DNA from: Pseudomonadales bacterium | Lineage (GTDB): Bacteria > Patescibacteriota > Microgenomatia > UBA1400 > PJMF01 | DNA length: 64,000 nucleotides | Direction: 5' to 3' | Assembly (NCBI GenBank): GCA_020632235.1 | Contig: JACKFY010000002.1 | Location: 11,550 to 75,549 of the forward strand | Shown here: positions 1-60,310 of the stretch, in pieces | Position numbering within the stretch: position 1 is the stretch's first letter | Layout: every line of letters begins with the position of its first letter | Notes under the pieces: model-generated | Seen by the model: only the letters and a program-made list of their open reading frames with translations | The model's database searches: none | What the model was told of the DNA's origin: nothing | Program-made: the position numbers and the translations under genes

Positions 1-1515
1 TCTTTAAAGGGTGGCTGCGTCTAAGCCTACCTCCTAGGTGTCTTTGGATACGAACTTCCTTTACCACTAAATGTACACTTTGAGACCTTATCTGTAGGTC
101 TGGTTTGTTTTCCTTTTGCTCCTGGAACTTAGCTCCCAGGTGCTGAGTGCCGTGAAACAACAAAAAGTATTCGGAGTTTGACTAGATGCTCGAGATTGCT
201 CCCGAGACACCCGATCAGTGCTCTACCCCTTCTTGTCTTAACACGACCCTATACCTAAATATATTTCAGGGAGAACCAGCTATCTCCGGGTTCGATTGGC
301 ATATTACCCCTTACCACAACTCATCCGAGCCCCTTGCAGCGGACACCGGTGCGGACCTCCCTCTGACTTTCGTCAGAGCTCATCCTGGTCATGGTAAGCT
401 CACCCGGTTTCGGGTCATTCAATAACTACTCTCTCACCACAAGTGGTGAGAGACGCCCTATTCAGGCTCGCTTTCACTACGGCTTCCCCGCGAAACGGGT
501 TAACCTAAAGCAGTTATCAAATACTCGCAGGCTCATTCTTCAATAGGCACGAGATTACCCCTCACCTTGTTTTCTGGTTTATCCAGACGACAAGGTGAGG
601 GGCTCTCTCTGATTGTTAGCAGATAATTTCAGATTCTATTTCACGGGGTCTTCCACCCTTCTTTTCACCTTTCCCTCACGGTACTCGTTCACTATCGGTC
701 TTGTTTGGTATTTAGCCTTGGAGTGTGGTCACCCCAGCTTCGGAAGGGAGTTTGCCGTCTCCCAACTTACTCAGGAACACTGTATGGCATGTCTTATTTT
801 CGTATACACGACTGTCACGTTCTTTGGTTGCGTATTCCACCGCATTCTACTAAGAAGACATATCCACTATTCAGGTCCTACAACACCCCTCACTCTTTCC
901 TTCCAATTCTTTTCAAGAGTTCTGTCCATCCTTTTGCTCGTTTTTTCAACGCTTTTTCTCTGCGTTGAGCATATTTTCGTGCCTCGTATGCTTCATAGTA
1001 CACCAGGCACCAGTCATTCGTTCGACTGGTCCATTTACTACATCCAGAGTTGTGTTCTGTGTAGCGTCGTCGTAAGTCTGAGGTTTGTCCCACATAATAA
1101 CGATCAATGGCTGGGCTGTACAACACATACATATAAAACATAAAAACAATATTAAAACAAAAAGATGTCAAAAACCTTACATTGAAAAGAAAAAGTGAGG
1201 GGTTTGGGCTTTTCCCTGTTCGCTCGTCGCTTACTAAGGGAATCTCTTACGATTTCTATTCCTCTGGGTACTTAGATATTTCAGTTCCCCAGGTTACCTT
1301 CCCTCACCTCTTAGCCTCGAATTTCTTCAAGAACAAAAGGTGAGGGATCCCTTGCATCTCTACAAGGGGGGTTACCCCATTCGGACACCGCCGGATCAAA
1401 GCTTGATGACAGCTCCCCGACGACTTTCGCGGTCAATTTGCGTCCTTCTTCGGCCAAACAAGCCAAGGCATCCATTATCTGCGTTACTTCACATAAATAT
1501 TGCGAAATTGAGCTT
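1..1515 (-). rRNA. rrl: 23S ribosomal RNA, 5' ~1.06-kb portion; the gene continues past the window start. Interrupted by a ~290-nt insertion.
   Basis: Reverse complement matches conserved 23S blocks in order. The 5' end GGATGCCTTGGC..GAAGGACG lies near 1500. GGGGAACTGAAATATCTAAGTACCC is at ~1210-1290. GACCGATAGTGAACGAGTACCGTGAGGGAAAGGTGAAAAGAA is at ~630-700. GGAGATAGCTGGTTCTCC and GCAGCCACCCTTTAAAGA are at 1-20. Spacing between the ~250 and ~390 equivalents is ~290 nt longer than in E. coli. Confidence 0.9.
890..1171 (-). CDS. GIY-YIG nuclease superfamily protein (UPF0213/YhbQ-like), encoded inside the 23S rRNA insertion
   Basis: 93-aa ORF with YYVGQTSDLRRRYTEHNSG...KWTS...WCLVYYE...KRAKGW, the GIY-YIG core pattern. 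Same strand as the 23S gene. Occupies almost the whole inserted segment. Confidence 0.65.
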   Translation of the reverse strand: MTSFCFNIVFMFYMYVLYSPAIDRYYVGQTSDLRRRYTEHNSGCSKWTSRTNDWCLVYYEAYEARKYAQRREKALKKRAKGWTELLKRIGRKE

Positions 1516-2969: not shown

Positions 2970-4298
2970 ATGATTGCCAGCCTGTCCATCCCCGGTATTA
3001 TCGCTATTTTTGTGCTCTTGGTGGTCTACACATTCTTGATCACCGAGAAACTACCCAAAGTGCTGGTCTCCATTCTTGGCGCGGCAACACTCATCGTACT
3101 GCAGGTATTTAACACCCATGACGCCACACCGCAGGAAAATGCCTTTCAATTTGTTGCCCACAATCTCGATATTTTGGGGTTTGTTATCGGCATGATGGTA
3201 CTGGTGGGCATCGTGCGCGAGTCTGGCTTTTTTGAGTCAGCAGCTATTTACTTGGTCAAACTAGTCAAAGGCCGTCCTGTAGCGCTCCTTATTGCTATTG
3301 GCTACTTGACGCTCGTTATGACAACATTTTTATCAAACATCCCGACCGTGCTGATCTTAACGCCGGTGGTGCTGGTCTTGGTCAAGCAGCTGAAACTTCC
3401 TGTCCTCCCCTACCTCTTTACGCTGGTGGTGATGGCCAATATTGGTGGTGCTATGACGCCTATTTCTGATCCTACTACCTACTACCAGGCAAAAACGGTT
3501 GGTCTTTCTTTTATGGAAGTGATGAGCAATTCTGGCTTGATCGTGCTTATTCTCTCGGTAGTCTCAATCGCCTACATCCTGCTTGTCTTTCGAAAACAGC
3601 TGGCCCAGGCCGCCAAGCAAGACACCGATGTCAGCACCTTTGACCCTAAATCGGCACTAGAAGATCACTACATTCTCAAAGTGGGCATTCCTATTATTAT
3701 CTTGAGTGTGCTCTTGATGGTGCTCAAAGATGCTATTGCCAGCACCTTTGGCATACAGTTGGATAACGCCACTATTACCGTTACATCTGCATTTTTATGC
3801 ATTCTTATCTTTCACAAAGACCCTCGGTCGGTGCTGAGAAATCTGATTGACTGGGAAATTATTTTCTTTTTTATTGGATTATTTATTGTTGTAGGCGCGC
3901 TCGAGTTCACGCATGTCATTGAGATGCTTGCAGATAGCCTGGTGAGTATTACAGGAGGCAATCTCACTCAGCTGGCGCTGTTACTTTCTGTTGGCTCTGG
4001 ATTACTCTCAACATTTATTGACAACGTCCCCTACAACATCACCATGGTCAGCGCCATTCAGGCCATGGAGGCATCAAGCATCTGGGTGTATCCTCTCTGG
4101 TGGGCGCTTAATTTGGGCACCTCAATTGGTGGCTTTGGCTCGCCCATTGCGGCTGCGTGTAACGTGATTATCTTTGGCCAGGCAGAAGAAGAAAAAATCC
4201 ATGTGCTATTTGCCAAGTACTTGGCGCTTGCCCTTCCGCTCGTCATCATTCACAGCTTGATTAGCTTTATGGTGATTTGGGCGCGGTACTTGCAGTAG
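2970..4298 (+). CDS. ArsB/NhaD-superfamily permease (anion/Na+-H+ antiporter-like transporter)
   Basis: 442 aa, ~11 TM segments, with duplicated motifs (FLSNIPTVLILTPVV...GGAMTPISDPTT and STFIDNVPYNITMV...GTSIGGFGSPIAAACNVI) typical of this superfamily. Confidence 0.7.
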   Translation: MIASLSIPGIIAIFVLLVVYTFLITEKLPKVLVSILGAATLIVLQVFNTHDATPQENAFQFVAHNLDILGFVIGMMVLVGIVRESGFFESAAIYLVKLVKGRPVALLIAIGYLTLVMTTFLSNIPTVLILTPVVLVLVKQLKLPVLPYLFTLVVMANIGGAMTPISDPTTYYQAKTVGLSFMEVMSNSGLIVLILSVVSIAYILLVFRKQLAQAAKQDTDVSTFDPKSALEDHYILKVGIPIIILSVLLMVLKDAIASTFGIQLDNATITVTSAFLCILIFHKDPRSVLRNLIDWEIIFFFIGLFIVVGALEFTHVIEMLADSLVSITGGNLTQLALLLSVGSGLLSTFIDNVPYNITMVSAIQAMEASSIWVYPLWWALNLGTSIGGFGSPIAAACNVIIFGQAEEEKIHVLFAKYLALALPLVIIHSLISFMVIWARYLQ

Positions 4299-14824: not shown

Positions 14825-14950
14825 GCGTCTACTAGGACTTACCGATGCTGCGATCGGCACAGGCTTCTCGCCCTACTAGCCGCGTGTGCGTCTACTAGGA
14901 CTTACCGATGCTGCGATCGGCACAGGCTTCTCGCCCTACTAGCCGCGTGT
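14825..14950. repeat. two tandem 63-bp direct repeats, each beginning with the last 15 nt of the adjacent tRNA (GCGTCTACTAGGACT) and containing the palindrome CCGATGCTGCGATCGG
   Basis: Exact duplication at 14825-14887 and 14888-14950. A third copy of the 15-nt start is the 3' end of tRNA-Ile itself (14951 onward). Confidence 0.85.
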
Positions 14951-15023
14951 GCGTCTACTAGGACTCGAACCTAGAACCCCCAAGGTATAAGCTTGGTGCT
15001 CTCACCAATTGAGCTATAGACGC
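14950..15023 (-). tRNA. tRNA-Ile, anticodon UAU (reads AUA)
   Basis: Reverse complement: GCGTCTA-TA-GCTC-AATTGGTGA-GAGC-A-CCAAG-CTTATAC-CTTGG-GGGTT-CTAGG-TTCGAGT-CCTAG-TAGACGC-A. Canonical cloverleaf with anticodon loop C-U-UAU-A-C. Confidence 0.75.
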
Positions 15024-18486: not shown

Positions 18487-20817
18487 CTACAAATTACTCC
18501 TGCTTTGTATCTCTGCCTCCACCATCTCTTTATCTTTACCATACTTCAGGCGCGAGAGCTGCTTTATCATCTCGGCTAGCTTGGGGTTCATCTTGGCTTT
18601 AATTGCATCCATGTCTTTCATCAAACTCATGCTAAAGGGTGGCACTGGCTCGTTCTTCACAATGGTACGAATGTAAACGTGGTACTTCTCAATGTTGGTC
18701 AGGTCGCCCTCATTAAAGGTGGGTGCAAACTCGTGTTGCAAAAAGTTAGCATCAGGCACACCCACACGAAATGACACAATCGTACCCACGTTGCCAAACA
18801 CAGCGTTTTTCACATCTTCGTCAATCTGGCTCACAAACTGGTTGGCCACAATCAGATTGAGGCGATACTTCCTAGCCTCCGAGAGAATAACCGCAAAATC
18901 TTCGGTGGCGTAGTTTTGAAACTCATCCACATATAAAAAGAAGTCTTCGCGCTGATCCATCGGCACATCTTGCCTACTCATAGCAGCTGTCAGTACCTTT
19001 GGTACTAAGATTAAACCTAAAAACTTAGCGTCTTCTTCTCCCAGAATTCCTTTTGAAAGGTTGCATAAAATAATCTTTTTCTCATCCATGGCCTTTCTAA
19101 AGTTAAAAGCACTATGAGGCTGGCCAATAATGTTACGCATAGTTTTGTTGGTTACAAATCTGCCAAACTTCGAGACGATGTAGTCCAATACCTCAGACTT
19201 ATGAAAATCACTGGTTTGGGCAATTTGGTCTGTCCAGTAGCGCTTCACCACCGGGTCTTTGACGTACGGCAGTAGCTCGTTAACATACTTGCTATCGGTG
19301 AGCACGCGCACTAGCTCTATAAACGTACTCCCCTTTTTGTACATGATAGTGAGCATGGCATTGCGAATAGCGTGCTCAAACCGCGGTCCAATGATACCCG
19401 TGCGATGTGGATCATACAGCTTGTACATCAAACCAATGATGGAACTCACCACAAAGTGACGCTGCTCCTCAGTGTCTGCCTCCATCATGTTCATTCCCAT
19501 TGGTCGGGTCAAATCTGAGGGGTTAAAGTAAATAACATCTTCAGCACGCTCTGGCGGCATCAGCTGCAGAATGTCTTCGACAAACTCACCGTGGGGGTCA
19601 ACCGCGCACACACCGTATCCAGATTCAATATCCTGCATAATCATTTCTTTTAAAAACTCTGACTTGCCCGTACCAGTTTTCCCAATGATGTACATATGCC
19701 GCCTTCTGTCATCCAGCGACATATGCACCTCGCGCTCTTGGCCACGATAGAGTGATTTACCCAAAAATAACCCTTTGGTAGGGATCATGCTTGGTGCCGG
19801 AGCATTTTTAGCATTCAGCCACTTAATATGATGTGTTTCTACTGTTTTATTCGGAAAGTGAAAGATGGTAGCTAGCTCTTCTGTATTTAAAATAGCAGTG
19901 TTTCGATTAAAAAACGGCATGTAGCGATACAAAAAATCAATCATAAAAATGTGTTTTAAAAACACCCTACCCTTGTCAAACCCGTTGTAGGCAGATGAAA
20001 ACTGGGCAAAAGCGCCCGTGATGTTGTTGAGGTGCGACTCAGCAGAGTACTCATTGGTGGACGACACCACCACGCGTATAGCCACCCGAAATCCAGGTTT
20101 TTCTGTCTTGGTGGCGATCGCCTCCATCTCTTTTGGATCGTGTCCATAGGTCGCTTTTTCCGGATCAGCCTCTTTTTTCTTTTCGTTTTGAATGTGTGAT
20201 CTACCCTGGTCTCGCCACTTTTTGCCCTCGGGGCGAAGTAAAATCTGGACAATTGCGCCCTCACCGTCATCAAGTTTGGAAAGGGCCGAGGTAATGAGTG
20301 ACAGCCCGTCGGTGGGCAAGTCTTTGTAGGTCTTGATGGGGTAGTAATTGGCTTTTTCTAGCTTGAGTGCGGCAAAGTCAACCCGCCCCTTTTCACTAAA
20401 AATATTCACTTCGTCGCGCTCCGAGATATCAGCGTTGGGGTACGCCCCGTGAATCTGCTTTTCTACCAGGTCGCGGATTTTTTTGGGACAGCTGATGTAA
20501 AAACTAATCTCTTCTTTCAGTGCCACTACCTCAAACGAAAAGACATCTTCTGGTTTTAAAAATGAAAAAACACCACTGTGTTTGATGGAGTACAGCCCAG
20601 CAAACATCTGTTCGGCAGCGTCGATCTTGATTTCGTTGTCTTTGGGCAGGCGCACCAGCAGTGAAACAAAATCAAGCGCATACTCTTCGCGGTTTCTGTG
20701 TTTATACCACTGCAGCAACATGTAGAAAAACACCGCGATGATGGCAGCAAAAATAAGAAGGAAAAACACCAGACTGGCTATTTCTAAAATCTGGGATGCT
20801 ATATTTTGTGTATCCAT
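18487..20817 (-). CDS. membrane-anchored P-loop ATPase of the FtsK/HerA (AAA_10 / T4SS coupling-protein-like) type
   Basis: 776 aa. One N-terminal TM. Walker A MYIIGKTGTGKSEF, then CAVDPHGEF, then Walker B FFLYVDEFQNY, then RKYRLNLIVANQ. No VirB4-type CagE N-terminal domain. Confidence 0.6.
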   Translation of the reverse strand: MDTQNIASQILEIASLVFFLLIFAAIIAVFFYMLLQWYKHRNREEYALDFVSLLVRLPKDNEIKIDAAEQMFAGLYSIKHSGVFSFLKPEDVFSFEVVALKEEISFYISCPKKIRDLVEKQIHGAYPNADISERDEVNIFSEKGRVDFAALKLEKANYYPIKTYKDLPTDGLSLITSALSKLDDGEGAIVQILLRPEGKKWRDQGRSHIQNEKKKEADPEKATYGHDPKEMEAIATKTEKPGFRVAIRVVVSSTNEYSAESHLNNITGAFAQFSSAYNGFDKGRVFLKHIFMIDFLYRYMPFFNRNTAILNTEELATIFHFPNKTVETHHIKWLNAKNAPAPSMIPTKGLFLGKSLYRGQEREVHMSLDDRRRHMYIIGKTGTGKSEFLKEMIMQDIESGYGVCAVDPHGEFVEDILQLMPPERAEDVIYFNPSDLTRPMGMNMMEADTEEQRHFVVSSIIGLMYKLYDPHRTGIIGPRFEHAIRNAMLTIMYKKGSTFIELVRVLTDSKYVNELLPYVKDPVVKRYWTDQIAQTSDFHKSEVLDYIVSKFGRFVTNKTMRNIIGQPHSAFNFRKAMDEKKIILCNLSKGILGEEDAKFLGLILVPKVLTAAMSRQDVPMDQREDFFLYVDEFQNYATEDFAVILSEARKYRLNLIVANQFVSQIDEDVKNAVFGNVGTIVSFRVGVPDANFLQHEFAPTFNEGDLTNIEKYHVYIRTIVKNEPVPPFSMSLMKDMDAIKAKMNPKLAEMIKQLSRLKYGKDKEMVEAEIQSRSNL

Positions 20818-28646: not shown

Positions 28647-30458
28647 CTACCCCACCCTAATCCCACCAAGCTCCACAAGCGTTGTCACGTCGCCCAACGC
28701 CTTGTCTTCACGGATACCCACCAACCGAGGAAACCTAAGCGCCACACCTGCGGTGTGGCTTGGCGAAGTAGTAATTTCATCGGCGGCAAGTTCTACCACC
28801 AGTTCTGGCTCCACCCAGATATCAGGAGTGTGTTGCTTATCTACCTGGTAGTTTTTTGGTTGCTGAGAAACTTCAAGGTTTGCCAAACGGGCTTTAAGCT
28901 CGGCTAACTGCGCCTCTGTCATACCCGTTCCTACTTTGGTAAGTGTTACTACCTGCAAATCGTTGGTTGAAGTATCAATGACACCTGCTAAAAATGCTCC
29001 TATGCCAAACTGAGCTCTGCTGCCCTTACCCAAGTAGTATCCCATTATCACTGCGTCAACAGTGTCAGAAAGTTTGCCACTACTTCCCTCTGACTCCTTT
29101 ATCTTGACCCAAGACCAACCCTTTCGACCACTTTGGTACACCGAATCAAATTGCTTTACCACTGCCCCCTCCAAACCTTTTTCTAGTTCTGCTTCATGAA
29201 ATGAGTGCAGCTGAGTTGCGTCTGTCGTAACAATAAACGGAGTAAGCTCAAGCGATGGACCCGAGGTAACAATTTTTTTAAGTAACTGTTTTCTTTCACT
29301 CAAAGGTATATCAAGTTGGCCCTCTTCCTCGAAGAGTAATACATCGTAAATATAAAAACGAATCGGCACCTCGCTTGATTGCTCTGCAACACCATGTTTT
29401 CTCTTTCTTGTGATTGTTTTTTGAAACGGCAGAAGCTGATCATTGACTGGGTCATACCCAATTGCCTCTCCGTCAAGAATACATGATTCACACTCAAGGA
29501 GTTGAGGGAGCGTATCTATCTCTGGGAACATATACGTCACATCTTCCAAACTTCTAGTAAACACTTGAGTACTTGGTTTTCCTTGGCTGGATTTCTGAAT
29601 ATGAATCTGCACACGCAGACCATCATACTTTGGCTCGGCAATTACCTTACCCATTTTTTCAATAATTTCTGCAGAGGTATTCAACCGCTGGCACAGCGCT
29701 GGCACGACCGGGATACCCACCACTACTTTGTATTGATTTTTCAATGTGCGCTCTACATCGTCAAGAGTATCTTTGTTGGTGACGTTCGAGAGGTAAAACA
29801 ACGCCAAGTTGCCTATGTCTGCCTGCTTTTGGTAGGCGTCCTCTAGCAGACCTCGGTGTGACTTATCACCTACAATAGACCAAGAAAGCGCATCGATCAT
29901 GGTCATCACCGAAAACCCCAGGCGCATCTTGCCCATGACAATTCTGGTCACGTACTTGGCAGAAAGCGCGTCGAGTCGCCCGAGAAGTGATGAGAGTGCC
30001 GCTACCTTTCTCTCCTGCGAGCCCTGGCCACTGTCTTGGGCAATACGTAGTAAATCTTCAAATACTTCCTGAAGGGACATGCTAGAAGGCCGCGCGCTAG
30101 TCAAGCTAGCTGAGGCTTCTCGCACTGCTAGTGCTGTCTGGCCTATATCACCTATCTGTTTGTACAAACGCTCAACTTCTTGAATCTTGTTTTCAGAAGA
30201 AGACTCACCAAACAGATCAACTGCTACATCAGCTTGAGGCATTAGCTGAGCAAGTGAGCGAATCAGCATCTTGGCAGATAACTGAAACTCTAGAGACTGA
30301 TACGCGGGCACCAAACCTCCCTGCAGTAAGTAGCTGGCAGGAATAATCTCTGCTTCATCCAGTTTTTTAAACAAATCAGCTAAAATCCCTGTCATTTCTA
30401 ACCGAGAGGAATGCTGTTCTAGCTGTAATAAAGTTTTGGAAAATGTTGCAAAAAGCAT
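28647..30458 (-). CDS. ATP-dependent DNA ligase
   Basis: Motif I AEPKYDGLRVQIH (active-site Lys), downstream nucleotidyltransferase and OB-domain motifs. Start set at MLFATFSK; an upstream in-frame Met is possible. Confidence 0.85.
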   Translation of the reverse strand: MLFATFSKTLLQLEQHSSRLEMTGILADLFKKLDEAEIIPASYLLQGGLVPAYQSLEFQLSAKMLIRSLAQLMPQADVAVDLFGESSSENKIQEVERLYKQIGDIGQTALAVREASASLTSARPSSMSLQEVFEDLLRIAQDSGQGSQERKVAALSSLLGRLDALSAKYVTRIVMGKMRLGFSVMTMIDALSWSIVGDKSHRGLLEDAYQKQADIGNLALFYLSNVTNKDTLDDVERTLKNQYKVVVGIPVVPALCQRLNTSAEIIEKMGKVIAEPKYDGLRVQIHIQKSSQGKPSTQVFTRSLEDVTYMFPEIDTLPQLLECESCILDGEAIGYDPVNDQLLPFQKTITRKRKHGVAEQSSEVPIRFYIYDVLLFEEEGQLDIPLSERKQLLKKIVTSGPSLELTPFIVTTDATQLHSFHEAELEKGLEGAVVKQFDSVYQSGRKGWSWVKIKESEGSSGKLSDTVDAVIMGYYLGKGSRAQFGIGAFLAGVIDTSTNDLQVVTLTKVGTGMTEAQLAELKARLANLEVSQQPKNYQVDKQHTPDIWVEPELVVELAADEITTSPSHTAGVALRFPRLVGIREDKALGDVTTLVELGGIRVG

Positions 30459-30502
30459 GCAACTATTATAGCTAACAAAGACTAACAAAATAGCGTGAAA
30501 TC

Positions 30503-41527: not shown

Positions 41528-41974
41528 ATGAAAAAATTACCACTCAGTTTTTCCAAAGCAATACTACTCTGTTTTATATTTCTGACAGCTTTACTAGCCC
41601 TCCCCCTCACCTCGCAGGTGAGGGGCCAAAGCTCTCTGGGCACCATCGATGTCCCTCCTGGCGTTGATGTCTACATCGCGCAATCTGGACTCTCGGATGA
41701 CGAGATCGCCATCATCTTTTTTATCAATCGTGGCATCTTGCTCATCACCGTTATCAGCGCCCTCTGGGCATCGCTGATGATCATCCTCGCCAGCTACACA
41801 CTACTCACCTCTCAGGGTGATACGGGCGCCTACACCAAAGTCAAGCAGTTATTTATCAACGCCGTCATTGGCCTACTACTCATACTGCTCACCTACACTA
41901 TTGCTGGCATCATCGGTCTACTTGTTTTTGGCGACCCAGGGTATATTTTAAATCCAGAATTGCCGCAGCCATGA
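41528..41974 (+). CDS. T4SS pilin-like protein (VirB2/TrbC family)
   Basis: Signal peptide. ITVISALWASLMIILASYTLLTSQGDTGAYTKVKQLFINAVIGLLLILLTYTIAGII. Confidence 0.55.
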   Translation: MKKLPLSFSKAILLCFIFLTALLALPLTSQVRGQSSLGTIDVPPGVDVYIAQSGLSDDEIAIIFFINRGILLITVISALWASLMIILASYTLLTSQGDTGAYTKVKQLFINAVIGLLLILLTYTIAGIIGLLVFGDPGYILNPELPQP

Positions 41975-44500: not shown

Positions 44501-44540
44501 ACCCCTCACTTTAATTTTTTAACCAAGGTGAGGGGTTTTT
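44501..44540 (+). terminator. Rho-independent terminator (AAACCCCTCAC ... GTGAGGGGTTTTT)
   Basis: 8-11-bp GC-rich stem followed by T5, 22 nt after the stop of the 44063 gene. Confidence 0.7.
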
Positions 44541-46039: not shown

Positions 46040-49000
46040 ATGACAACCAAACCAGCACAACCCACTCAGGCTTCCAGAGCCAAAGCTGGTATAATCGAGG
46101 CCATGTTGGCCCTACGATCTCCCACTCGGTTTTTGTTGTCGTGCCTTTTGGCAAGCAGTCTCTTGCTGCTCTCGGTAAGTGGAGTTTTGGCAGGTAAAGC
46201 GGGCATTAACATTGGCGACCACTTTGGTGAAGTAGACCAAGCAGCACAAATCACCCGTGATGGTGGTTGGATAGTCGTCATGGCACAGCCGGGCGACTGC
46301 ATGGATCTCTCGCAAATGATGGCAGATCACCCCAACACCAACTTTGTTATCCGCGGACACCACCCTCACACCGACGTAATGTCTCCTGAACACGCAAAAG
46401 CATGGGCCTACACCCTAGCCAACATGAATACGGGCGGAAGAAAAGTATATTTTTACCCTGTGAACGAGCCATTTACCCGGGGGGCGCAGGAGGGGTTTTC
46501 CAACGACCCTGCCACCACCGCTCAGATGGTGAACGCGTATGTTGACACTCTTCTCTCTACTGCTCCGGGACTAGACCAAAAGGTGGTATTTCTCTCGCCC
46601 ATGATAAACAGAACACACCCAAACTATGAAAGCAATGTGGACTTGTTGGGCGGAGCAGGTTTTTACAATAAATTTTCTGGTATATCAATGAATTTATATG
46701 ATTTTCAAGGCTGCGGAGGGCCGTTTTGCCACCCCAACAAACATCTTAACTCAGGAAGATTTTTAGAAGACAAAGCGCTCGAAGGCATTGATGCTGGCAA
46801 GCAGGTCTACGCTGTCGAATCTGGCGTGGTAAATGGAAACGTCGTCTACATAGACACCCAACTGCGAACGTACTACGAGGCTGGTTATGGCAGCCCTGGG
46901 CCATTTCTTGACTCCAGGCTGGCAATGACCGCCACATTTTCCTACAACCCCCACGCCAGCGACTGGAGCATCTACGGTACACAGACCGCTAGTTTTTTTC
47001 AGGGGTTGGGTGGTGGAACTGCGCCAATTCCAGAAACCTTTGACGAGGAAGCGTGGTTTGCTGACAACAACATACAAGACAAAATTGACGCAGGCGAGAT
47101 CATCCAGTGTGACGAGTGCGGCTTGAGCCCTTCCACCCCCGACGGGGCTGGCTACTGTGCGGCTGTGGGCAACTATAGTACGACGATCTTCCCCGAGTAC
47201 GAATACGAAAACACCGAGTACTACATCCATCCTATTTGCGAAAATGAAGAGGTGTGCCGAAGTGGTAGTTATGAAGAGGCAACCGTGGAGTATAAAAACA
47301 GCCTCATAAACCAAGGGTATGAGGCCTACTGCGCCAACGAAGAAGTGCAAGTACTCGGCACTACGGGGCAAAACTGGGATCTCTACCTATCACTCATTGC
47401 CTCTGGACAACAACCCGGGAGTCAGCAAACAACACAAAGCGAGTACGTGCTTGACGCCACCAACATGAAGGTGCCGCTATTCAGAGATGTATCGGGTAAA
47501 CGCTGGCGCATGACATCGCTGGAAGAGTTTTTTGGATTTAGAGATATTTACACCAACAAAGACACTGAAAGCCTCATCAACAGCGCTATGATTGAAAAAC
47601 TAACTTCCCAAGAGCAGCGCTGTCAGCTGTCGGTGCAGATCTTGCGGGAGACCAAGCAATTTTGCCAGCGAGAAGAAAATGCAGATACAGCCTCGTGCTA
47701 TCTCAATACTCAGATACCAGACCCTGCCGGCTCGGTAATTGGCAACATGAAGAGACTCGACGCCCTCTCTCTTTTTGAAGGACAAGGCACAACATGCAGT
47801 GAGCTTGTCCAGCGTCAAGACACAGACCCGCTAAAAGCCGCCATTATGAATAATCCATTGTATCTTGAAAGGCTCTATAGACTGGGGTTCTTGGTAACCT
47901 CAGTACGGCAGGTTGCGCCAAATAGCTACACAGGCAATCCCGATACTTTTTTTAGTTTTTTTTCGAATAACTATAGTTCTGGGGTGGGGCTCGCCTACGC
48001 CTCTAGCATGAACGATGTTTCGATCACTGCATTTAAAATCCCTGATGTTGGGCTGGGTCATGACTACGAAAAACTCCAAAACGAAGATGGTTCTACAGCG
48101 GATTTGCAAGACACCAGCATATATACCGACCCATTGTACAACACCAAGCTATCGGTGCTCAGCACCAAGCAACAGCAGTACGCAGCCACCATGAGTGCAG
48201 AGTATAAAGATATACTCAGGCACAACTCATACACCGAGTACGAACGTCCAGATGGCTCTGTCGTTACTGGTCCTCGTCCGTTTGGCGGTAATGACCTCAT
48301 CAACTGCCCTTTCACTCCTGGCTGTGGCGTACCTCATTTTGACCCCAGCACGCCAGTTGACCCGCTTTTTCGTGCAATTATAGACTTGGTCAATACCAAC
48401 AAAGGCATTTACGGCACAGAAGACAAAGATGAAGACGGCAAGCCCGATGTTATTCCTGGCAGGACCTACACAGTAGAAGACATAGCTGATAGAGACAAAG
48501 GTTTGTATCTAAACTGTAAGCCAGAAATAGTCGAGATCACCCCCGAGGGTGTGACGCGCATTTCAGATCCATCGACCATTGATGAGTCTGACCCCTATAG
48601 AAACCTAGAAAATGACCTGGGCGAAACAAACGAACACATCGCGTTGTCTCTGGCAAACAGACTCAGAAACGGTGACACGAGCACTCCTATTTCGAGAACA
48701 AACTTTAGCCCATTTACTTCTATTATCAAATCAACTAATACAGAAAAAAATAGGTACGCTATGATCAACACCTATGTGGTGTATCCGGGAGAGTACGAGG
48801 CAAACGAGATTGCAAATGCTATTCGCAGCCCCTTTGTGCCCTTTGAAGACGCAGAAGAGATTGACATAAACAGACTCAAAGGTTGCGACCCCTACGAAAC
48901 AGACTGTCCGCCACTGCTACAACCAGACGGATCGGTCAAACCAAAAATCCAGAGAGGATTTGAGCTCATTGGAGGTATTTTTCAGTCAAGCTGGGGAAGT

Positions 49001-49750
49001 GTTGTCTTTCCATTCAGGGACGTCACTATCTCGTGCCCACCTGGCGAACCAGACTGCAACTACAAAGAGGCTGGTGCTGGAGTCATTGCGTCCAACCTTA
49101 CCAACACACTGATGATTCCTGGCGAAAAACTAGGTTTTTGGACCAGAGAGATCCAGAAATCACTCAATACCGCCGTCAGCACCCAACGCTCATACCTTGA
49201 CAGCTGTCAGACACTAGAGCAATTTTTACTGGGCACCTGCGGCGGGGCAACAAGTAGTGGTTCTACCACCACTCTAGCCAGTAGTGTTGTACCCACTCCA
49301 ACCATACTAGGAAACCACCAGTGCATACCTGTTCCAGAGGGAAACCCTTACTGCAGCATCTCTGCTATTCAAAGCTTTACGGGCTGGGATGAAGCTCGTG
49401 CCCGCACAGCGTCCATCATCTGTAATGTTGAAAGTGGGGGTAACCCAAATGTAGCAAACACCAGTTGTTTGGTAGGTGGTACTGTTGACTACAGCATCGG
49501 TCTGTTTCAGATCAACCTACTTGCTCACGGTACACCTGGCATTCTGTTTGATGCAAACGGGCGAACAAACGGTAGTCCTGGCTATGACCCAACAGCAGTC
49601 CCCTGCAGTGTTGCCAATGCAGCGCTCCTCGAGCAAAACGAAACGTACTACTTTATTCCTGATAATAACTTGAGAAAAATGGTGGAGTTGTCAAATGATG
49701 GGACCAACTGGCAGCCTTGGGCAGCTGCTAGCTACTGCGGGATCAACTAG
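46040..49750 (+). CDS. giant secreted protein (1236 aa) with a C-terminal Rpf/SLT-like lytic transglycosylase domain and an N-terminal glycoside-hydrolase-like (NEP motif) region; putative T4SS-associated cell-wall hydrolase
   Basis: Signal peptide ~residues 22-50. C-terminus IICNVESGGNPNVANTSCLVGGTVDYSIGLFQIN...W (ESGGN...GLFQI transglycosylase signature). N-terminal region FVIRGHHPH...VYFYPVNEP... Confidence 0.7.
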   Translation: MTTKPAQPTQASRAKAGIIEAMLALRSPTRFLLSCLLASSLLLLSVSGVLAGKAGINIGDHFGEVDQAAQITRDGGWIVVMAQPGDCMDLSQMMADHPNTNFVIRGHHPHTDVMSPEHAKAWAYTLANMNTGGRKVYFYPVNEPFTRGAQEGFSNDPATTAQMVNAYVDTLLSTAPGLDQKVVFLSPMINRTHPNYESNVDLLGGAGFYNKFSGISMNLYDFQGCGGPFCHPNKHLNSGRFLEDKALEGIDAGKQVYAVESGVVNGNVVYIDTQLRTYYEAGYGSPGPFLDSRLAMTATFSYNPHASDWSIYGTQTASFFQGLGGGTAPIPETFDEEAWFADNNIQDKIDAGEIIQCDECGLSPSTPDGAGYCAAVGNYSTTIFPEYEYENTEYYIHPICENEEVCRSGSYEEATVEYKNSLINQGYEAYCANEEVQVLGTTGQNWDLYLSLIASGQQPGSQQTTQSEYVLDATNMKVPLFRDVSGKRWRMTSLEEFFGFRDIYTNKDTESLINSAMIEKLTSQEQRCQLSVQILRETKQFCQREENADTASCYLNTQIPDPAGSVIGNMKRLDALSLFEGQGTTCSELVQRQDTDPLKAAIMNNPLYLERLYRLGFLVTSVRQVAPNSYTGNPDTFFSFFSNNYSSGVGLAYASSMNDVSITAFKIPDVGLGHDYEKLQNEDGSTADLQDTSIYTDPLYNTKLSVLSTKQQQYAATMSAEYKDILRHNSYTEYERPDGSVVTGPRPFGGNDLINCPFTPGCGVPHFDPSTPVDPLFRAIIDLVNTNKGIYGTEDKDEDGKPDVIPGRTYTVEDIADRDKGLYLNCKPEIVEITPEGVTRISDPSTIDESDPYRNLENDLGETNEHIALSLANRLRNGDTSTPISRTNFSPFTSIIKSTNTEKNRYAMINTYVVYPGEYEANEIANAIRSPFVPFEDAEEIDINRLKGCDPYETDCPPLLQPDGSVKPKIQRGFELIGGIFQSSWGSVVFPFRDVTISCPPGEPDCNYKEAGAGVIASNLTNTLMIPGEKLGFWTREIQKSLNTAVSTQRSYLDSCQTLEQFLLGTCGGATSSGSTTTLASSVVPTPTILGNHQCIPVPEGNPYCSISAIQSFTGWDEARARTASIICNVESGGNPNVANTSCLVGGTVDYSIGLFQINLLAHGTPGILFDANGRTNGSPGYDPTAVPCSVANAALLEQNETYYFIPDNNLRKMVELSNDGTNWQPWAAASYCGIN

Positions 49751-51867: not shown

Positions 51868-52290
51868 TGCCTCCGTTGTATTGAAGTGGGTTCTCCCCGA
51901 ACCAGGAACAGAAAAAGCTATTACGCTTTTTGACCTTCACGCCAGTAAAAAAATCGAGCTATACGCACCAATCCTGCTATTATACGAGGTGACAAACACC
52001 ATCGCCCTAAAAAAAGACCTCAGCTCTAAGCAGGTAAAAGATGCGCTCGCCATAATATTAGATGAAAGAATTAACCTTGTGTCTATGGAGATATATATGC
52101 AAAAAATAGCCCAAGCTGTTCGCGGCTAGTCCATCTCTGCCTATGACGCCAGCTATGTGGTGCTGGCTCAGCAGTACGACTGTCCTCTCGTCACCGCCGA
52201 CACAAAGCTCATTTCGGCAGTGGGTAAACCCTTTGTCCAAACTCTTGAAGCGCTAGACATCCCCTCTTTTTCCCTCACCATAAAGTGGTG
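51851..52290 (+). pseudogene. PIN-domain toxin (VapC-like) interrupted by a frameshift/stop near 52125
   Basis: N-terminal frame MALIVDASVVLKW...LLLYEVTN ends at 52129. The C-terminal PIN segment SISAYDASYVVLAQQYDCPLVTADTKLIS continues in another frame. Confidence 0.65.
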
Positions 52291-52365
52291 AGGGGGGGGT
52301 TTCATATCCCCTCTTTCAAAGAGGGGCGGGCTAAAAGCCGGGGGTGTTTTTCCCCCCAGATACTA
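52270..52365. repeat. composite hairpin-repeat element (family member), immediately 5' of the VirB6-like gene
   Basis: CACCATAAAGTGGTGAGGGGGGGGTTTCAT + CCCCTCTTTCAAAGAGGGGC + GGGCTAAAAGCCGGGGGTGTTTT, near-identical to the 23.4-kb and 45.7-kb modules. Confidence 0.6.
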
Positions 52366-56434: not shown

Positions 56435-59400
56435 ATGTTTGACGCTCGTACTGACTCGCCAGAAACAACAGAGCAAACCGCTCAAGACAACCAGGGTGGG
56501 CAAAGCATACCCAGGGGGCACGTACTTGTCTCCGACCTCAAGCATCTCAAGACTGGCCTGGCAGGAAATGACTGGCAGCAGCTAGAGAAATTGCTCTTGT
56601 CTATCCTTGGCGCACTTGATGGTGAACACCACCTGCTGCATGACCAAAAAATAACCATTGCTCTTGAGGATGGAATGGGAGAACTGACCACAACCAACGA
56701 GCCGCACTCGGCTTTTGGGCGAGAAGAACAAAAAGTCTGGTTGTTTTTTACCGATGTTCTTAGTATTTCTCTTGACGCGCTCGAGCAGCTAGAGGTGCCT
56801 GGATACTCAGAGAGTGAGGTTGCAGCAAAGCTAAACAGCTTTTCAAACAAAACAGGGGCAGACTCTGGCGTTATAGATGAAGTAGAGCTGGTGGATAATC
56901 AAAACCTGCGCTTTGAGGTATTTGAGATTGTACAAGCTGCCTACGAGGCAGTTTTGGCCCATATCAATGCACAAACGAAACAAGAGCCGCCAGAAAAAGA
57001 AACAGATAAAAGCGAAACAACTTCTGATGATCCAGGGTTAAAAAAGCAACAAAGGGGTGATGCTGTAACTCTTTCTGGGGCAAAAGTACGAAGAAAAGAA
57101 ACAACGGAGGGAGGCGGTGAAACAGGCCAAACCCAACCAGCCCAGCAAACACTACAAGAAGAAAAGCTCTACGGCACGCGCACTGCTGCCCAGGCCTTCC
57201 AGTACCAAGCTGCCTGGCTGCAGGCTGCAGGCATGCATCAGATTGCTACCCAGCTAGGGATTGATATTGACAGCCTGGGGGCAGAACAACAAGCGCTACT
57301 GCGCACTGCGCTACAAAACGCCATAGGCCAGTATCTGAGCGATCCGCGCAACTTGCAAAACCTAAGCGACCTAAAAAATGCCGACATATACCGCCTAGAG
57401 GCATTACGAGAGATAACGAGACTGCTGAATGGACAAAAACTCCAGATTGTCTTGACTAGAGTAGATGAGCAAGGAGTAGAAGCACAAAGCGAGACAAGCG
57501 TTACCCTAGACCAACCCACCACCGTTGACGACACACAACTACTCTCCCAGGCAATACGCCAGCACTTCCCCAATGTAAGTAACCAACAAATTGTCACTAT
57601 TGAGCAAATGCTGCACACACTAGAGGTACTAAACGGCTCTAGCGTTACTATCACCCCCACTATTGTTATTGAGATCTTTGAACAAGCCACCGCCATTCGC
57701 CTCTCTCCAGACGACCCGCGCCTGCTCTCACTCGTTGCTTTTTTCAAGACCTTTGTGGTGATGCAGGTCAAGGAAGCTGCCCTGATCACAGAAAATAAAG
57801 ACACAGAAAGTGGTATTACTATTGCCGGTACTCCCAGAGAAAGCCTAGAGCAACACTACTCACCTCGCACTATCGTATTAGCAGAAACAAGCAAAGATGA
57901 GCCAGAAGTTCTCCCCGCAGAGCAAAGAGAAAATGTGGCTCGCCGGGCTGGCCGGCTGGGGGATCGCCAGTTTTTGAAAGTACAAAAAATGTATGGCCCC
58001 GTGTGGAACAGCTTTACTGCCGAGCAACAAGAAGCTATCGCCGCTTATATCCAAAGCAAAAACCCCCAGTTTACCCCCTACCGAGACCCCATCAGCAAAG
58101 AACTGCTCTTTCCCATCGAGTTTACCTGGCTCTCGGGCAGTGAGTTAAAGCGTGTTGTTGAGAAAAAAACGAGTGGTGGGGTTGTTATTGACTCGGCGCA
58201 GGCAAATAACTCTGTGGCAGAGTTTGAGCGACTGCGGATAGATCCGAAAATCCAAGAGCAACTTGAGGTAATCGAGCTAGAACAGCTCTACTCCCAGGCA
58301 TTGCTTGAACAACTCGATGAGCAGCAAAAGCAAATCTTATTAAACCAGCTGGTACAGGAACAGATCGCCAAGTACCAGGCTCAACTAGAGTACTTTGCGG
58401 CAGTAGAACAGTTGGAGCAGCAGATCTTCATTCAACAAAGACGTGCATATATAGAGCAACAACTAGCACTTCTAGAGGCTGGAGAAGCACAACTAGCAGA
58501 TTTTCAATATGCCCAGATGATGGGTGGGATTGTCTCCCAAGAACGACAACAAGCAGCTTGGGAAGCAGCAAAGGCGGGTGGTGAGCCTATTCCAGAAGGA
58601 ACTACTCCCAGTCGATTTTTCAAACGAGGGCAAACTGCTGGAAGTATAAGAAACACTACTGTCAATAAAGCAACAAAGCGCGCTCAAGATCTAAAAGAGT
58701 TAGCAAAGCTAGCTGCTGCTGCGGGCAGAGTAGCAAGTGGCGACATCAAGGCGCTTGTTGATGTTATTCGCAATAAGCAATTTAGAAAACTTGTGAAATA
58801 CCTCGGCTTAGGAGGCATCGCGGGAGGGGTTATTTCTTATATTCTGGGGGGACTAAAAGCGCTCGCAGGATTTGTGGGTGGTGGAGTTATTGGTGGTACT
58901 GTTGGTGGATTCATTGGCTTTTCAATTGGAGGTCCGCTTGGAATTATACCAGGCATTCTTGTCGGCTCAGCAATCGGAGGGACTATAGGCTCAGCAATTG
59001 GAGGAACTATGGGAGGGTGGCAGGGTGGGTTCACTTCCTCTATCGGCACCACAGAGGGTCTTTCAAATATCCAGGCTGCCACTGGCGGTGTCAGCAACAT
59101 CGTGACAGGAACAGGTGGACAAGCAGCTGGCGCAGGAGGATCTACTCTCACTACCTCAGGTGGAGGTGCGGGAGGATTTGGGACAGCTACAACTACCACA
59201 GCTGCCACTGGTGGTGGAGGCGTTATTGCAAGCGCAACGGGCGCGGCTGCAGCGGCCGCCAGTGCTCTGGGTATTGGCGTACTAGCCCCAGCCATGGGTA
59301 TTGCCATGATTGCTGGTATGTCGCTCTATAACCTTTGGATCATCCAACACTCATTTTTAGCACCCCTACCCCTGGGCACACCTCTCACCGCCCAGCCAAG

Positions 59401-60310
59401 CTACTCCCAGTACATCGAGGTAGAAAAATCGGTCACCCCCAGCGTGCTGGAAAACGGCAGTGCGCCGCCCACCCAGCTGACCTACACCATCACCATTCGC
59501 CCCAGGAGTCTGTACCAGGTAGAGATCATAAGCGCCACCGACACCTTTCAGTTTTTGGGCAAAGACGGGGAAAAAGTAGATCCCGTTATTACAGAGCTAG
59601 ACAGCAACAACCAACACCCAGTCGATTTACAGACGGATTTTGACATCACACCAGCCGAAAAGGTAACTACCACCAAGACAGGCACCTACACCTTTACCAT
59701 CACCAACTCCCCCACCGACGTCATGATCCAGAACACCTTTGAGGTAGACTTTATCGCGTACGACGGCACAGGCGCCCAGGTGGCAACAGACAGCATCACC
59801 GCCACTGCCCAGCTGCCGGTGGGAACGCCAGAGATATTTGGCTGTTGGCCCACGACGGGCTCTATCACCCAGCTACCATACAACCTACGGTCATGGAGTT
59901 CTACCTCCCAGTTCGCGGACGGCCACAGCAGGGTGGCAGAATACAACCACGACGCATTTGACATTGCTAATGGTGCTGGCACACCTATTTATGCGCCATT
60001 TTCAGGAACTGCCTTTACGGGCAATAGTTTTGCAGGGGGGATATGGGGATATGGATACTATGTAGTACTAAAAACCAACAGCAATCAAAGCCTTATGTTT
60101 GCCCACATGACACGACAAGCGTTTTCGGGCACAAAGAGTGTTACAGCAGGAGAAACCATAGGGTTTATGGGCAGTACTGGCAACAGCAGGGGAAGCCATC
60201 TTCACTACGGTATACTAGAGACGACCAGCACTCCTTTTGGGGTCCTTAGAACGCTTGTTCCTGATAGAAGCGCTCCACTTAATACATATGTAACAAGCTG
60301 CTATGACTAA
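56435..60310 (+). CDS. giant protein (1291 aa): coiled-coil N-terminal region, Gly-rich membrane segment, beta-rich region, C-terminal peptidase M23 (LytM) domain
   Basis: C-terminus HDAFDIANGAGTPIYAPFSGTAF...GYGYYVVLKTNSNQSLMFAHMT...GETIGFMGSTGNSRGSHLHYGI (HxxxD ... HxH M23 signature). Central GGIAGGVISYILGGLKALAGFVGGGVIGG... Confidence 0.75.
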   Translation: MFDARTDSPETTEQTAQDNQGGQSIPRGHVLVSDLKHLKTGLAGNDWQQLEKLLLSILGALDGEHHLLHDQKITIALEDGMGELTTTNEPHSAFGREEQKVWLFFTDVLSISLDALEQLEVPGYSESEVAAKLNSFSNKTGADSGVIDEVELVDNQNLRFEVFEIVQAAYEAVLAHINAQTKQEPPEKETDKSETTSDDPGLKKQQRGDAVTLSGAKVRRKETTEGGGETGQTQPAQQTLQEEKLYGTRTAAQAFQYQAAWLQAAGMHQIATQLGIDIDSLGAEQQALLRTALQNAIGQYLSDPRNLQNLSDLKNADIYRLEALREITRLLNGQKLQIVLTRVDEQGVEAQSETSVTLDQPTTVDDTQLLSQAIRQHFPNVSNQQIVTIEQMLHTLEVLNGSSVTITPTIVIEIFEQATAIRLSPDDPRLLSLVAFFKTFVVMQVKEAALITENKDTESGITIAGTPRESLEQHYSPRTIVLAETSKDEPEVLPAEQRENVARRAGRLGDRQFLKVQKMYGPVWNSFTAEQQEAIAAYIQSKNPQFTPYRDPISKELLFPIEFTWLSGSELKRVVEKKTSGGVVIDSAQANNSVAEFERLRIDPKIQEQLEVIELEQLYSQALLEQLDEQQKQILLNQLVQEQIAKYQAQLEYFAAVEQLEQQIFIQQRRAYIEQQLALLEAGEAQLADFQYAQMMGGIVSQERQQAAWEAAKAGGEPIPEGTTPSRFFKRGQTAGSIRNTTVNKATKRAQDLKELAKLAAAAGRVASGDIKALVDVIRNKQFRKLVKYLGLGGIAGGVISYILGGLKALAGFVGGGVIGGTVGGFIGFSIGGPLGIIPGILVGSAIGGTIGSAIGGTMGGWQGGFTSSIGTTEGLSNIQAATGGVSNIVTGTGGQAAGAGGSTLTTSGGGAGGFGTATTTTAATGGGGVIASATGAAAAAASALGIGVLAPAMGIAMIAGMSLYNLWIIQHSFLAPLPLGTPLTAQPSYSQYIEVEKSVTPSVLENGSAPPTQLTYTITIRPRSLYQVEIISATDTFQFLGKDGEKVDPVITELDSNNQHPVDLQTDFDITPAEKVTTTKTGTYTFTITNSPTDVMIQNTFEVDFIAYDGTGAQVATDSITATAQLPVGTPEIFGCWPTTGSITQLPYNLRSWSSTSQFADGHSRVAEYNHDAFDIANGAGTPIYAPFSGTAFTGNSFAGGIWGYGYYVVLKTNSNQSLMFAHMTRQAFSGTKSVTAGETIGFMGSTGNSRGSHLHYGILETTSTPFGVLRTLVPDRSAPLNTYVTSCYD

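Follow-up and report, generated by a model that had tools for sequence, protein, structure and literature searches.

We report here that a 23S rRNA gene at the start of a 64,000-nucleotide stretch of contig JACKFY010000002.1 (positions 11,550 to 75,549; this whole stretch is hereafter called the window) is interrupted by a small DNA segment that encodes a GIY-YIG nuclease and ends in inverted repeats. From comparison with related loci, we assign a probability of roughly 0.62 to the hypothesis that this segment, at window positions 886-1202, is one copy of a selfish mobile hairpin cassette of about 0.3 kilobases (kb) that is widespread in the Candidate Phyla Radiation (CPR, or Patescibacteria) and is tolerated by its hosts as an intervening sequence (IVS). 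An initial annotation of the window had noticed the insertion, and this observation is confirmed, far beyond chance, by the results described below.

The insertion, its hairpin ends and its nuclease gene

The first 1498 positions of the window hold, on the minus strand, the 5′ part of a 23S rRNA gene, which matches positions 1-1129 of the Rfam model LSU_rRNA_bacteria (RF02541) with 827.7 bits and E=1.6e-269. The sole large gap in this alignment comprises 298 unaligned nucleotides at window 893-1190, which fall in the loop of a domain I hairpin at model positions ~274-295 that we take to be helix 15 in the usual helix numbering. In the sense RNA, the 298 nucleotides stand between CAAAC-CCCUCAC and GUGAGGG-GUGUUG. 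Relative to Escherichia coli rrlB, the insertion follows the block aligned to nucleotides ~266-273 and precedes nucleotide ~274, where E. coli has no hairpin. The initial annotation had described a segment of ~290 nucleotides at 880-1210 that was filled by an open reading frame (ORF) on the rRNA strand. The covariance alignment proposed at the time as a check reveals a separate insertion with rRNA aligned on both flanks, upholds the coordinates and strand, and leaves only 49 of the 298 nucleotides outside the ORF. The features of this region are as follows.

1-1498, minus strand: 23S rRNA gene, 5′ part, cut by the window start (Rfam RF02541)
893-1190, minus strand: 298-nucleotide segment to which nothing in the bacterial 23S model corresponds, within the hairpin loop at model ~274-295 (Rfam alignment, E. 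coli comparison)
886-1202, minus strand: whole candidate cassette, 317 base pairs (bp), bounded by the terminal inverted repeat CCCCTCAC...GTGAGGGG (inverted-repeat analysis)
1181-1202, minus strand: 5′ arm, sense strand CCCCTCACTTTTTCTTTTCAAT (inverted-repeat analysis)
886-907, minus strand: 3′ arm, sense strand ATTGGAAGGAAAGAGTGAGGGG, which encodes the last residues ..IGRKE and the TGA stop (inverted-repeat analysis)
890-1141, minus strand: GIY-YIG nuclease gene, 83 amino acids plus stop, with an alternative TTG start at 1171 that would give 93 amino acids (Pfam, profile search, structure model)
1149-1154, minus strand: -10-like hexamer TAATAT, 7 nucleotides upstream of the ATG (read from the sequence)

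The inverted repeat that holds the 5′ arm spans 27 positions, the outer five of which are host sequence. Twenty-two positions match, and three of the five mismatches are U-G pairs in the sense RNA. The predicted stem extends further inward than the 5′ arm. Sense RNA from positions 870-1215 forms a single long stem by pairing of the leader (CCCCUCACUUUUUCUUUUCAAUGUAAGG...) with the final ~60 nucleotides of the ORF, stop codon included (...CUUGAAAAGAAUUGGAAGGAAAGAGUGAGGGG). The energy of this fold, -112.7 kcal/mol, compares with -78.6 ± 4.9 kcal/mol for shuffled sequences (z=-7.0), and none of 100 shuffles is as good. The hairpin-loop location and this terminal stem mean that the tip of a peripheral helix is replaced by a stem-loop made from the element's own ends; in relatives residing at helix 25, the part replaced is a 9-nucleotide tip. 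An insertion that prolongs a hairpin in this way has the anatomy of a bacterial IVS or an expansion hairpin, and not that of a ribozyme.

The sense-strand ORF at 890-1171 encodes 93 amino acids when read from a TTG codon and ends with a TGA stop at 890-892, whereas the ATG at 1141 gives a protein of 83 amino acids. We prefer the shorter form because all homologues begin MFYVY or MYYVY, and thus the ATG is likely to be the start codon. An exact-sequence look-up found neither the 93- nor the 83-residue product on record. The Pfam GIY-YIG family (PF01541) matches the ORF with E=1.2e-14 and 54.8 bits against a cut-off of 22.6, which settles the profile check suggested in the initial annotation. 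The earlier label of a YhbQ-like GIY-YIG protein is also right, since the best matches in a profile search of the PDB are the UPF0213 proteins 1zg2 (BH0048, 2e-11) and 1ywl (EF2693, 1e-8), which align over profile positions 2-71 and 2-73, respectively, and place the protein in the UPF0213/YhbQ subfamily. These are followed by SLX1 and then, weakly, by I-TevI.

An AlphaFold model of the 83-residue protein, with a predicted local distance difference test (pLDDT) score of 88, depicts a bare beta-beta-alpha-beta-alpha-alpha domain (E-E-H-E-H-H topology). Its best fold matches are BH0048 (1zg2) and the nuclease domain of Slx1, with template modeling (TM) scores of 0.64-0.68, and the catalytic domain of I-TevI matches more weakly. 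Slx1, the closest characterized relative of the window protein by fold, is an endonuclease that cuts branched and hairpin DNA in a structure-specific manner. The window protein has all of the residues that are invariant in the family (Y5, Y16, G18, R26, H30 and E62), such that Pfam match, invariant residues and fold agree in placing it in the GIY-YIG superfamily. It also has the subfamily signature LVYYEAY, which is invariant among relatives. The catalytic domain is not joined to separate DNA-binding modules as in homing endonucleases of the I-TevI/Seg type. No NCBIfam family matches significantly (the intron-endonuclease model TIGR01453 scores E=0.076 and 13 bits against a cut-off of 56), and PHROG holds no match for the protein. 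We also considered phages as a vector for this gene and rejected the idea, given this absence from PHROG and a scan of 2.9 million viral contigs that yielded just 7 weak relatives. We know of no function or mobility that has been ascribed to UPF0213 proteins of bacteria.

A family of cassettes in stable-RNA genes

When one genome per GTDB species was scanned, at least 512 relatives came up, the best 80 of which come almost entirely from Patescibacteria/CPR. Inverted arms of 12-30 bp with the same end motif bracket the ORF in 41 of the 57 loci analyzed; the loci were chosen by protein similarity, and thus this share is not an unbiased estimate for the family. In the armed loci, the ATG follows the 5′ arm at a distance of 0-40 nucleotides, and the 3′ arm either overlaps the stop codon or comes immediately after it. 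At their outer ends, the arms are conserved as CCC(C)-N1-2-CAC(C)... and ...(G)GTG-N1-2-(G)GGG. Inner arm sequences vary freely between loci yet stay complementary, with 753 of 797 positions in 40 distinct loci forming Watson-Crick pairs. The homologous cassettes are 283-322 bp long, a range that includes the 317 bp of the window copy. Conserved terminal inverted repeats and a constant size are as expected of transposons and of miniature inverted-repeat transposable elements (MITEs), and dozens of independent assemblies, produced by different projects, show this same architecture. At locus L007 (~3960-4290), the 3′-arm-type sequence GTGTGGGGG is found both upstream and downstream of the ORF in direct rather than inverted orientation, which may reflect two cassettes in tandem or in a rearranged configuration.

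The sites occupied by these cassettes are diverse. In 23S rRNA genes, helix 25 is occupied in loci L001-L005 and L081 and in 28 Saccharibacteria species genomes, the hairpin at model ~226-233 is occupied in L071, and helix 15 is occupied in the window. The window 23S gene is itself only ~70-76% identical to those of the Saccharibacteria loci. The terminal loop of 16S h44 is occupied in L060 (by alignment) and L047 (by blastn only), and the P12 loop of RNase P RNA is occupied in L065. The tip of RNase P RNA P3 appears to be the site in L011, L016, L017, L035 and L077, because the 3′ arm in these loci abuts GAGGAAAGUCC. At the 5′ ends of tRNA genes (L051, L064, L069 and L084), the G-run of the 3′ arm constitutes the first tRNA bases, and at tRNA 3′ ends (L054 and L057) the 5′ arm overlaps the end of the tRNA. 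Some copies reside in apparently intergenic DNA. Whenever the host RNA gene is identifiable, the cassette is co-oriented with it (18 of 18 lineage/site combinations; p~0.002 over ten distinct sites).

RNase P RNA genes bearing a protein-coding cassette are located at 3850-4490 in L065 and at ~3960-4700 in L016, L017 and L035, with further cases in L011 and L077, and several of them are truncated or mis-started by Rfam. In L035 and L011, an ORF-less mini-hairpin with identical arms lies deeper within the RNase P RNA call or shortly past its end.

Variants of the arm ends follow protein clades and not the taxon of the host or the insertion site. Members of the CCCCCACACC clade occur in Saccharibacteria, Woesebacteria, Giovannonibacteria, Paceibacteria and Sungbacteria, and the CCCCCCACCAC clade comprises both RNase P and intergenic copies. 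Likewise, the window copy at helix 15 clusters with L001 at helix 25 and with L008, and all three have CCC(C)TCAC ends; this clade thus resides at helix 15, at helix 25 and at one further site. The protein closest to that of the window in a collection of 5.8 billion proteins, P0001, is 57% identical and is likewise encoded within 23S genes, but at helix 25 (L001-L005). The agreement between arm ends and protein clades implies that the C-run and its variable nucleotides travel with the gene, and that one element lineage has come to reside at different sites.

Direct repeats of 3-8 bp immediately flank the arms in 11 of the 26 loci outside rRNA and RNase P helix tips, whereas 5000 permutations gave a mean of 1.07 and a maximum of 6 such loci. 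The repeats seen are CTTGA, TATGA, TTGA, TTTA, TTCA, CAAA, CCTA, CGGTTAG and GCCTATAG. At tRNA 5′ ends, the direct repeat is the tRNA start and the terminal GGG(G) of the cassette rebuilds the 5′ end of the acceptor. In intergenic copies, the C-run lies within the flanking direct repeats. An empty site is also available for comparison. A metagenome scan for short helix-25 tips returned 120 Saccharibacteria-like 23S genes, one of which, L200, is 99.3% identical to the cassette-bearing L020 over 601 nucleotides 5′ of helix 25. Where L200 reads GGAGCC-GGCTTGTCC-GGTGACGG, L020 reads GGAGCC-CAGCACC...GGTGCTG-GGTGACGG, from which it follows that the cassette replaces the 9-nucleotide tip GGCTTGTCC.

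Derivatives that lack the ORF accompany the complete cassettes. We find 17 ORF-less mini-hairpins in 620 kb (the loci and the window together) and none in a shuffled control, and the arm variant of a mini-hairpin is usually that of the local ORF-bearing copy (L011, L035, L071 twice, L073, L078, L085 and the window). Such a set of several copies at different sites, non-autonomous derivatives included, is again as expected of transposons and MITEs. A second copy of the ORF was not found in the window by tblastn, and each sampled region has only one ORF-bearing copy. The window harbors five ORF-less hairpins with cassette arms, and six CCCTCAC/GTGAGGG pairs occur in its 64 kb compared to ~0.2 expected by our estimate from base composition. 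The five hairpins are listed below.

558-602, minus strand: ORF-less mini-hairpin CCCCTCACCTTG...CAAGGTGAGGGG, which lengthens 23S helix 25 at its tip (a classical IVS site; Rfam alignment and arm scan)
1301-1346, minus strand: ORF-less mini-hairpin CCCTCACC...GGTGAGGG, which extends the 23S hairpin at model ~151-178 (Rfam alignment and arm scan)
41603-41625, strand not assigned: short hairpin CCCCTCACC-loop-GGTGAGGGG inside the listed ORF 41528-41974 (arm scan)
44502-44535, strand not assigned: intergenic, terminator-like hairpin that has the same stem and precedes a T run (arm scan)
52272-52294, strand not assigned: intergenic hairpin CCCTCACCAC-loop-GTGGTGAGGG, terminator-like, with the arm ends joined and almost nothing between them (arm scan)

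Directly after the last of these, at 52300-52350, there are more hairpins of the C-run/G-run type (CCCCTCTTTCAAAGAGGGG, then GGGGGTGTTTTTCCCCCC), forming an intergenic cluster of G/C-clamped hairpins.

Comparison among loci demonstrates what appears to be mobility of the protein gene and its arms as a unit at the DNA level. The protein also evolves under purifying selection. The 28 Saccharibacteria genomes contain 21 distinct nucleotide sequences that encode 8 proteins, with a median ratio of nonsynonymous to synonymous substitution rates (dN/dS) of 0.07 and with invariant arms.

A possible mechanism and competing explanations

If the window segment is a mobile cassette, we envision that its protein and arms constitute the unit that is inherited and that moves, landing at hairpin tips of stable-RNA genes, at the ends of tRNA genes and in intergenic DNA. 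The nuclease would most likely recognize or cut hairpin- or cruciform-forming DNA that contains the cassette ends, and the cassette would then be copied in by break repair. ORF-less mini-hairpins left behind share the arms specific to their genome and could therefore be targets in trans. Pairing of the arms in the precursor rRNA would lengthen a peripheral 23S hairpin, and the insert would thus behave as an IVS rather than as an intron. A double-strand-specific RNase of the RNase III type might clip it within the stem to yield a 23S rRNA that is fragmented and not re-ligated, or the insert might simply be tolerated as an expansion hairpin. RNase III-type IVSs have been suspected in CPR bacteria (PMC11270868), and transcripts in this group are reported to lose their rRNA insertions (Brown et al., 2015, as cited in PMC11270868).

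The protein could be expressed by co-transcription with the host RNA gene, from a short-leader transcript made by an internal promoter, or by both routes, as is suggested by the consistent co-orientation of the cassettes and by the presence in some copies of an extended -10 box. This box (consensus TGnTAyAAT) is located 7-10 nucleotides upstream of the ATG in three independent 23S-lodged lineages, namely L001, the L012/L020 group and L071. In the window, the hexamer TAATAT at 1149-1154 might conceivably serve as the promoter for a leaderless mRNA. A promoter and terminator scan of positions 1-2200 made no call in the cassette leader, and the sole promoter-like site that it placed in the cassette lies within the ORF. 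A short-leader mRNA would lack the 5′ arm and hence would stay unfolded. Taking these proposals to their limit, we consider it possible, though somewhat doubtful, that the cassettes represent a minimal autonomous element class, wherein a UPF0213/Slx1-like nuclease of 80-89 amino acids recognizes its own hairpin ends and spreads them, together with ORF-less satellites, into the hairpin tips of the most highly transcribed stable-RNA genes (23S, 16S, RNase P RNA and tRNA), in which folding and processing of the RNA would render the insertion harmless.

Several observations weigh against a mobile cassette. The step in which the cassette is copied into a new site is the weakest part of the mechanism, because the direct repeats vary, the insertions at helix tips are replacements, and no GIY-YIG enzyme that acts as a transposase is known to us. 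More specifically, a repeat length that ranges from 3 to 8 bp, together with the absence of repeats at rRNA and RNase P helix tips, where the tip is replaced instead, is a poor fit to a classical transposase with a fixed stagger. The window protein, at 83 residues and with a single domain in the AlphaFold model, has no DNA-binding extension. With the 23S flanks of the window as queries, a metagenome scan gave 0 matches to an empty helix-15 site, and a second cassette at exactly this site was likewise not found. The identity between L200 and L020 falls to 87% directly 3′ of the insertion site, and so L200 may be a metagenomic or assembly chimera, or else the flanking rRNA may have been co-converted with the cassette. 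Strong purifying selection in a vertically inherited copy is equally expected of a gene that benefits its host. Finally, arm mismatches across loci comprise 13 sense-strand G-U and 9 A-C combinations (p=0.52); because this excess is not significant, pairing of the arms could be selected at the level of DNA, RNA or both.

A serious rival to the mobile cassette is a domesticated or addictive RNA-processing module, in which the protein is kept for processing interrupted RNAs: it would act on the RNA hairpin or on a stable RNA of the host, and the host would be obliged to retain the gene. For example, a cut at the conserved base of the stem would release the insert, and the arms would be processing signals and not transposon ends. 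The strict co-orientation with host RNA genes, the low dN/dS of the vertically inherited copy and the way in which the conserved end motif tracks the protein clade all accord with this idea, as does the finding that all three transition mismatches of the window stem are G-U pairs in the sense RNA. Moreover, ORF-less hairpins in the same RNAs would need a factor that acts in trans. We nevertheless judge this explanation improbable, although it deserves to be kept in view. As far as we are aware, all characterized GIY-YIG enzymes are DNases; the asymmetry between G-U and A-C mismatches across loci is not significant; and intergenic copies with direct repeats, along with the presence of the same lineage at different sites, would demand DNA mobility in any case. 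We consider it still less probable that the window contains a passive, vertically inherited 23S expansion hairpin that happens to harbor a free-standing GIY-YIG gene, with stems elsewhere reflecting a general preference for C-rich/G-rich hairpins in terminators and helix tips. It is true that the consensus has C-run/G-run stems at the native tips of helix 25, RNase P P3 and RNase P P12, that some empty helix-25 tips read CCCAGC-TTG-GCTGGG, and that three of the window hairpins are short and terminator-like. However, both the CAC/GTG core and the variable nucleotides track protein clades in different phyla and at different host sites, the unit length is constant, a near-identical 23S gene with an unrelated short tip exists (L200), and the shuffled control yielded no mini-hairpins at all compared with the 17 observed. 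We tried host-derived C-run/G-run ends as a general explanation and rejected it, since the variants track protein clades across sites and phyla and, at intergenic sites, lie inside the flanking direct repeats.

Neither an intron nor an artefact accounts well for the data. The initial annotation had called the insertion a putative intron, which would make it a self-splicing group I or group II element with a homing endonuclease, such that the RNA splices itself out, the 23S rRNA is re-ligated and the nuclease cuts intron-less alleles. The superfamily of the ORF does include intron-encoded homing endonucleases, as its weak match to I-TevI recalls, and ORF-bearing introns are common in CPR rRNA genes (PMC11270868). 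This interpretation is nonetheless close to refuted. In positions 800-1300, an Rfam scan with permissive filters found no Intron_gpI match and no other intron family at E<=10, which answers the suggested test for group I/II structure, and besides 23S it returned only noise and no credible RNA family. There was no group II match in the same interval, in which the whole insert is 298 nucleotides and mostly ORF. Because only 49 nucleotides lie outside the ORF, far fewer than a ribozyme core occupies, there is no room for one. The insertion is situated in a variable hairpin loop and not in conserved core sequence, its ends pair as a plain long stem, its protein is devoid of the DNA-binding domains of I-TevI/Seg-type enzymes, and related cassettes occur outside genes with flanking direct repeats. 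Also, a published survey places every one of its 30 GIY-YIG ORFs from CPR rRNA in insertions that resemble neither intron class (Tsurumaki et al., 2024; PMC11270868). We regard it as extremely improbable that the insertion is an artefact of assembly or annotation, be it a chimeric contig or an rRNA expansion that contains an ORF by chance. The sequence is probably metagenomic, and the comparison contig L200 drops abruptly in identity at the insertion site. Against this stand the recurrence of the architecture in dozens of independent assemblies, the Pfam E-value of 1e-14 and confidently predicted fold of the ORF product, and flanking rRNA that aligns continuously to the model on both sides.

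Relation to known systems and neighboring features

At the level of rRNA insertions, the window copy is a further member of a documented but uncharacterized class. The published CPR examples (PMC11270868; Brown et al., 2015, as cited there) are the same object, namely a GIY-YIG ORF in a non-intron insertion of 16S or 23S rRNA at one of several sites. They are a minority, as the initial annotation had correctly stated, with 30 GIY-YIG ORFs compared to 248 of LAGLIDADG_1 and 116 of LAGLIDADG_2, and they have been viewed as sparse, as likely recent acquisitions and as 'outside the context of homing' (PMC11270868). Hairpin ends, a fixed unit size, RNase P RNA, tRNA and intergenic hosts, direct repeats and ORF-less derivatives do not figure in that account and are found here. 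In addition, Saccharibacteria have been reported to be essentially without ORF-bearing insertions (PMC11270868), whereas 28 Saccharibacteria species genomes in our analysis carry the cassette in helix 25.

Classical 23S IVSs are known from Salmonella, Leptospira, Coxiella and Campylobacter, and some contain an ORF of the 23S_rRNA_IVP/S23p family (PF05635). Fragmentation of 23S rRNA at helix 25 is known in enterobacteria. These IVSs share with the cassette an extended stem-loop that replaces the tip of a peripheral helix, inverted-repeat ends and, in Leptospira and Coxiella, an internal ORF. They also share the helix-25 site with L001, the Saccharibacteria copies and the window mini-hairpin at 558-602. 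The window insertion site, near E. coli nucleotide 273, is not known to be among the classical IVS sites. In contrast to the cassette with its GIY-YIG nuclease, those classical IVSs that contain an ORF encode a four-helix intervening-sequence protein (IVP). The cassette is also found in RNase P RNA genes, tRNA flanks and intergenic DNA. Classical bacterial IVSs are removed by RNase III without re-ligation (PMC11270868).

With UPF0213/YhbQ proteins (COG2827) and the Slx1 domain, which provide its best sequence and fold matches, the cassette protein shares a single catalytic domain of ~80-100 amino acids. Unlike UPF0213/YhbQ proteins in general, the cassette subfamily is marked by an invariant LVYYEAY signature of its own and by physical linkage to hairpin arms. 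Pairs of repetitive extragenic palindromic (REP) sequences and REP-associated tyrosine transposases (RAYTs), like pairs of MITEs and insertion sequences (IS), resemble the cassette in that a nuclease gene is flanked by inverted short palindromic repeats of which many ORF-less copies exist, often terminator-like, and REP variants likewise co-vary with the protein. However, RAYTs are HUH/Y1 transposases related to IS200/IS605, whereas the cassette is a GIY-YIG system of ~300 bp that prefers the helix tips of stable RNAs. I-TevI and the T4 Seg enzymes belong to the same catalytic superfamily and are selfish genes that spread through DNA breaks and repair, but they have at least 200 amino acids and separate DNA-binding modules, and they reside in group I introns or between phage genes without hairpin arms.

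In a literature search of incomplete coverage, we found no description of the hairpin ends, the ~0.3 kb unit, the occupation of RNase P RNA and tRNA genes, the direct repeats, the clade-specific ends or the ORF-less satellites, nor any earlier account of a protein-coding gene within a bacterial gene for RNase P RNA. The GIY-YIG hairpin cassette looks like an undescribed mobile element. Recognizing it corrects a mis-annotation, in that ORF-bearing rRNA insertions of the CPR kind are not all introns, and an IVS-type hairpin predicts that the 23S rRNA is fragmented or expanded rather than spliced. Insertions regarded as sparse and unexplained would become a coherent element with defined ends, size, relatives and satellites, and with a host range extended to RNase P RNA and tRNA genes. 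If the nuclease indeed acts on its own hairpin ends, it would represent a new enzymatic route to DNA mobility and a compact structure- or sequence-specific nuclease of 83 amino acids with possible practical uses. The cassette, at ~300 bp, would then be among the smallest self-contained mobile elements known, and the UPF0213/YhbQ family would gain a function. There is also a consequence for annotation: cassettes interrupt covariance-model matches, such that several RNase P RNA and 16S calls are truncated or mis-ended, and awareness of them improves rRNA and noncoding RNA annotation as well as 16S/23S phylogenetics in CPR genomes.

The remainder of the window makes a CPR origin plausible, as judged from its gene content and relatives. 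Regions 46040-49750, 56435-60310, 18487-20817 and 28647-30488 encode two very large proteins, a TrwB/HerA-like ATPase and an ATP-dependent DNA ligase; the two very large proteins terminate with lysozyme-like (SLT_3) and M23 peptidase domains. Such a set of genes is what CPR-type genomes with type IV secretion-like loci typically contain. A gene for tRNA-Ala(UGC) is located directly upstream of the 23S gene, at 1807-1881. No 16S gene is present in the entire 64 kb and only this tRNA gene precedes the 23S gene, indicating that the rRNA genes are unlinked, an arrangement reported to be common in CPR genomes (PMC8172020).

Between the tRNA-Ala and 23S genes, at 1694-1760 on the minus strand, there is a partial duplicate of the 3′ half of tRNA-Ala that neither ARAGORN nor Rfam called. 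It consists of a T-arm-like sequence GGGGGTTCGACTCCCCC and an identical acceptor end CCTTAGGGTCCA, and it is interrupted by a hairpin of ~30 nucleotides (GCCCATCTATCTG-CA-CAGATAGGCGCGGGC). This duplicate looks like the remnant of an insertion or recombination event at a tRNA 3′ end. Elsewhere, at 14949-15023 on the minus strand, the window contains a tRNA-Ile gene with the anticodon TAT (UAU), which is unusual for bacteria, most of which read AUA with a modified CAU anticodon.

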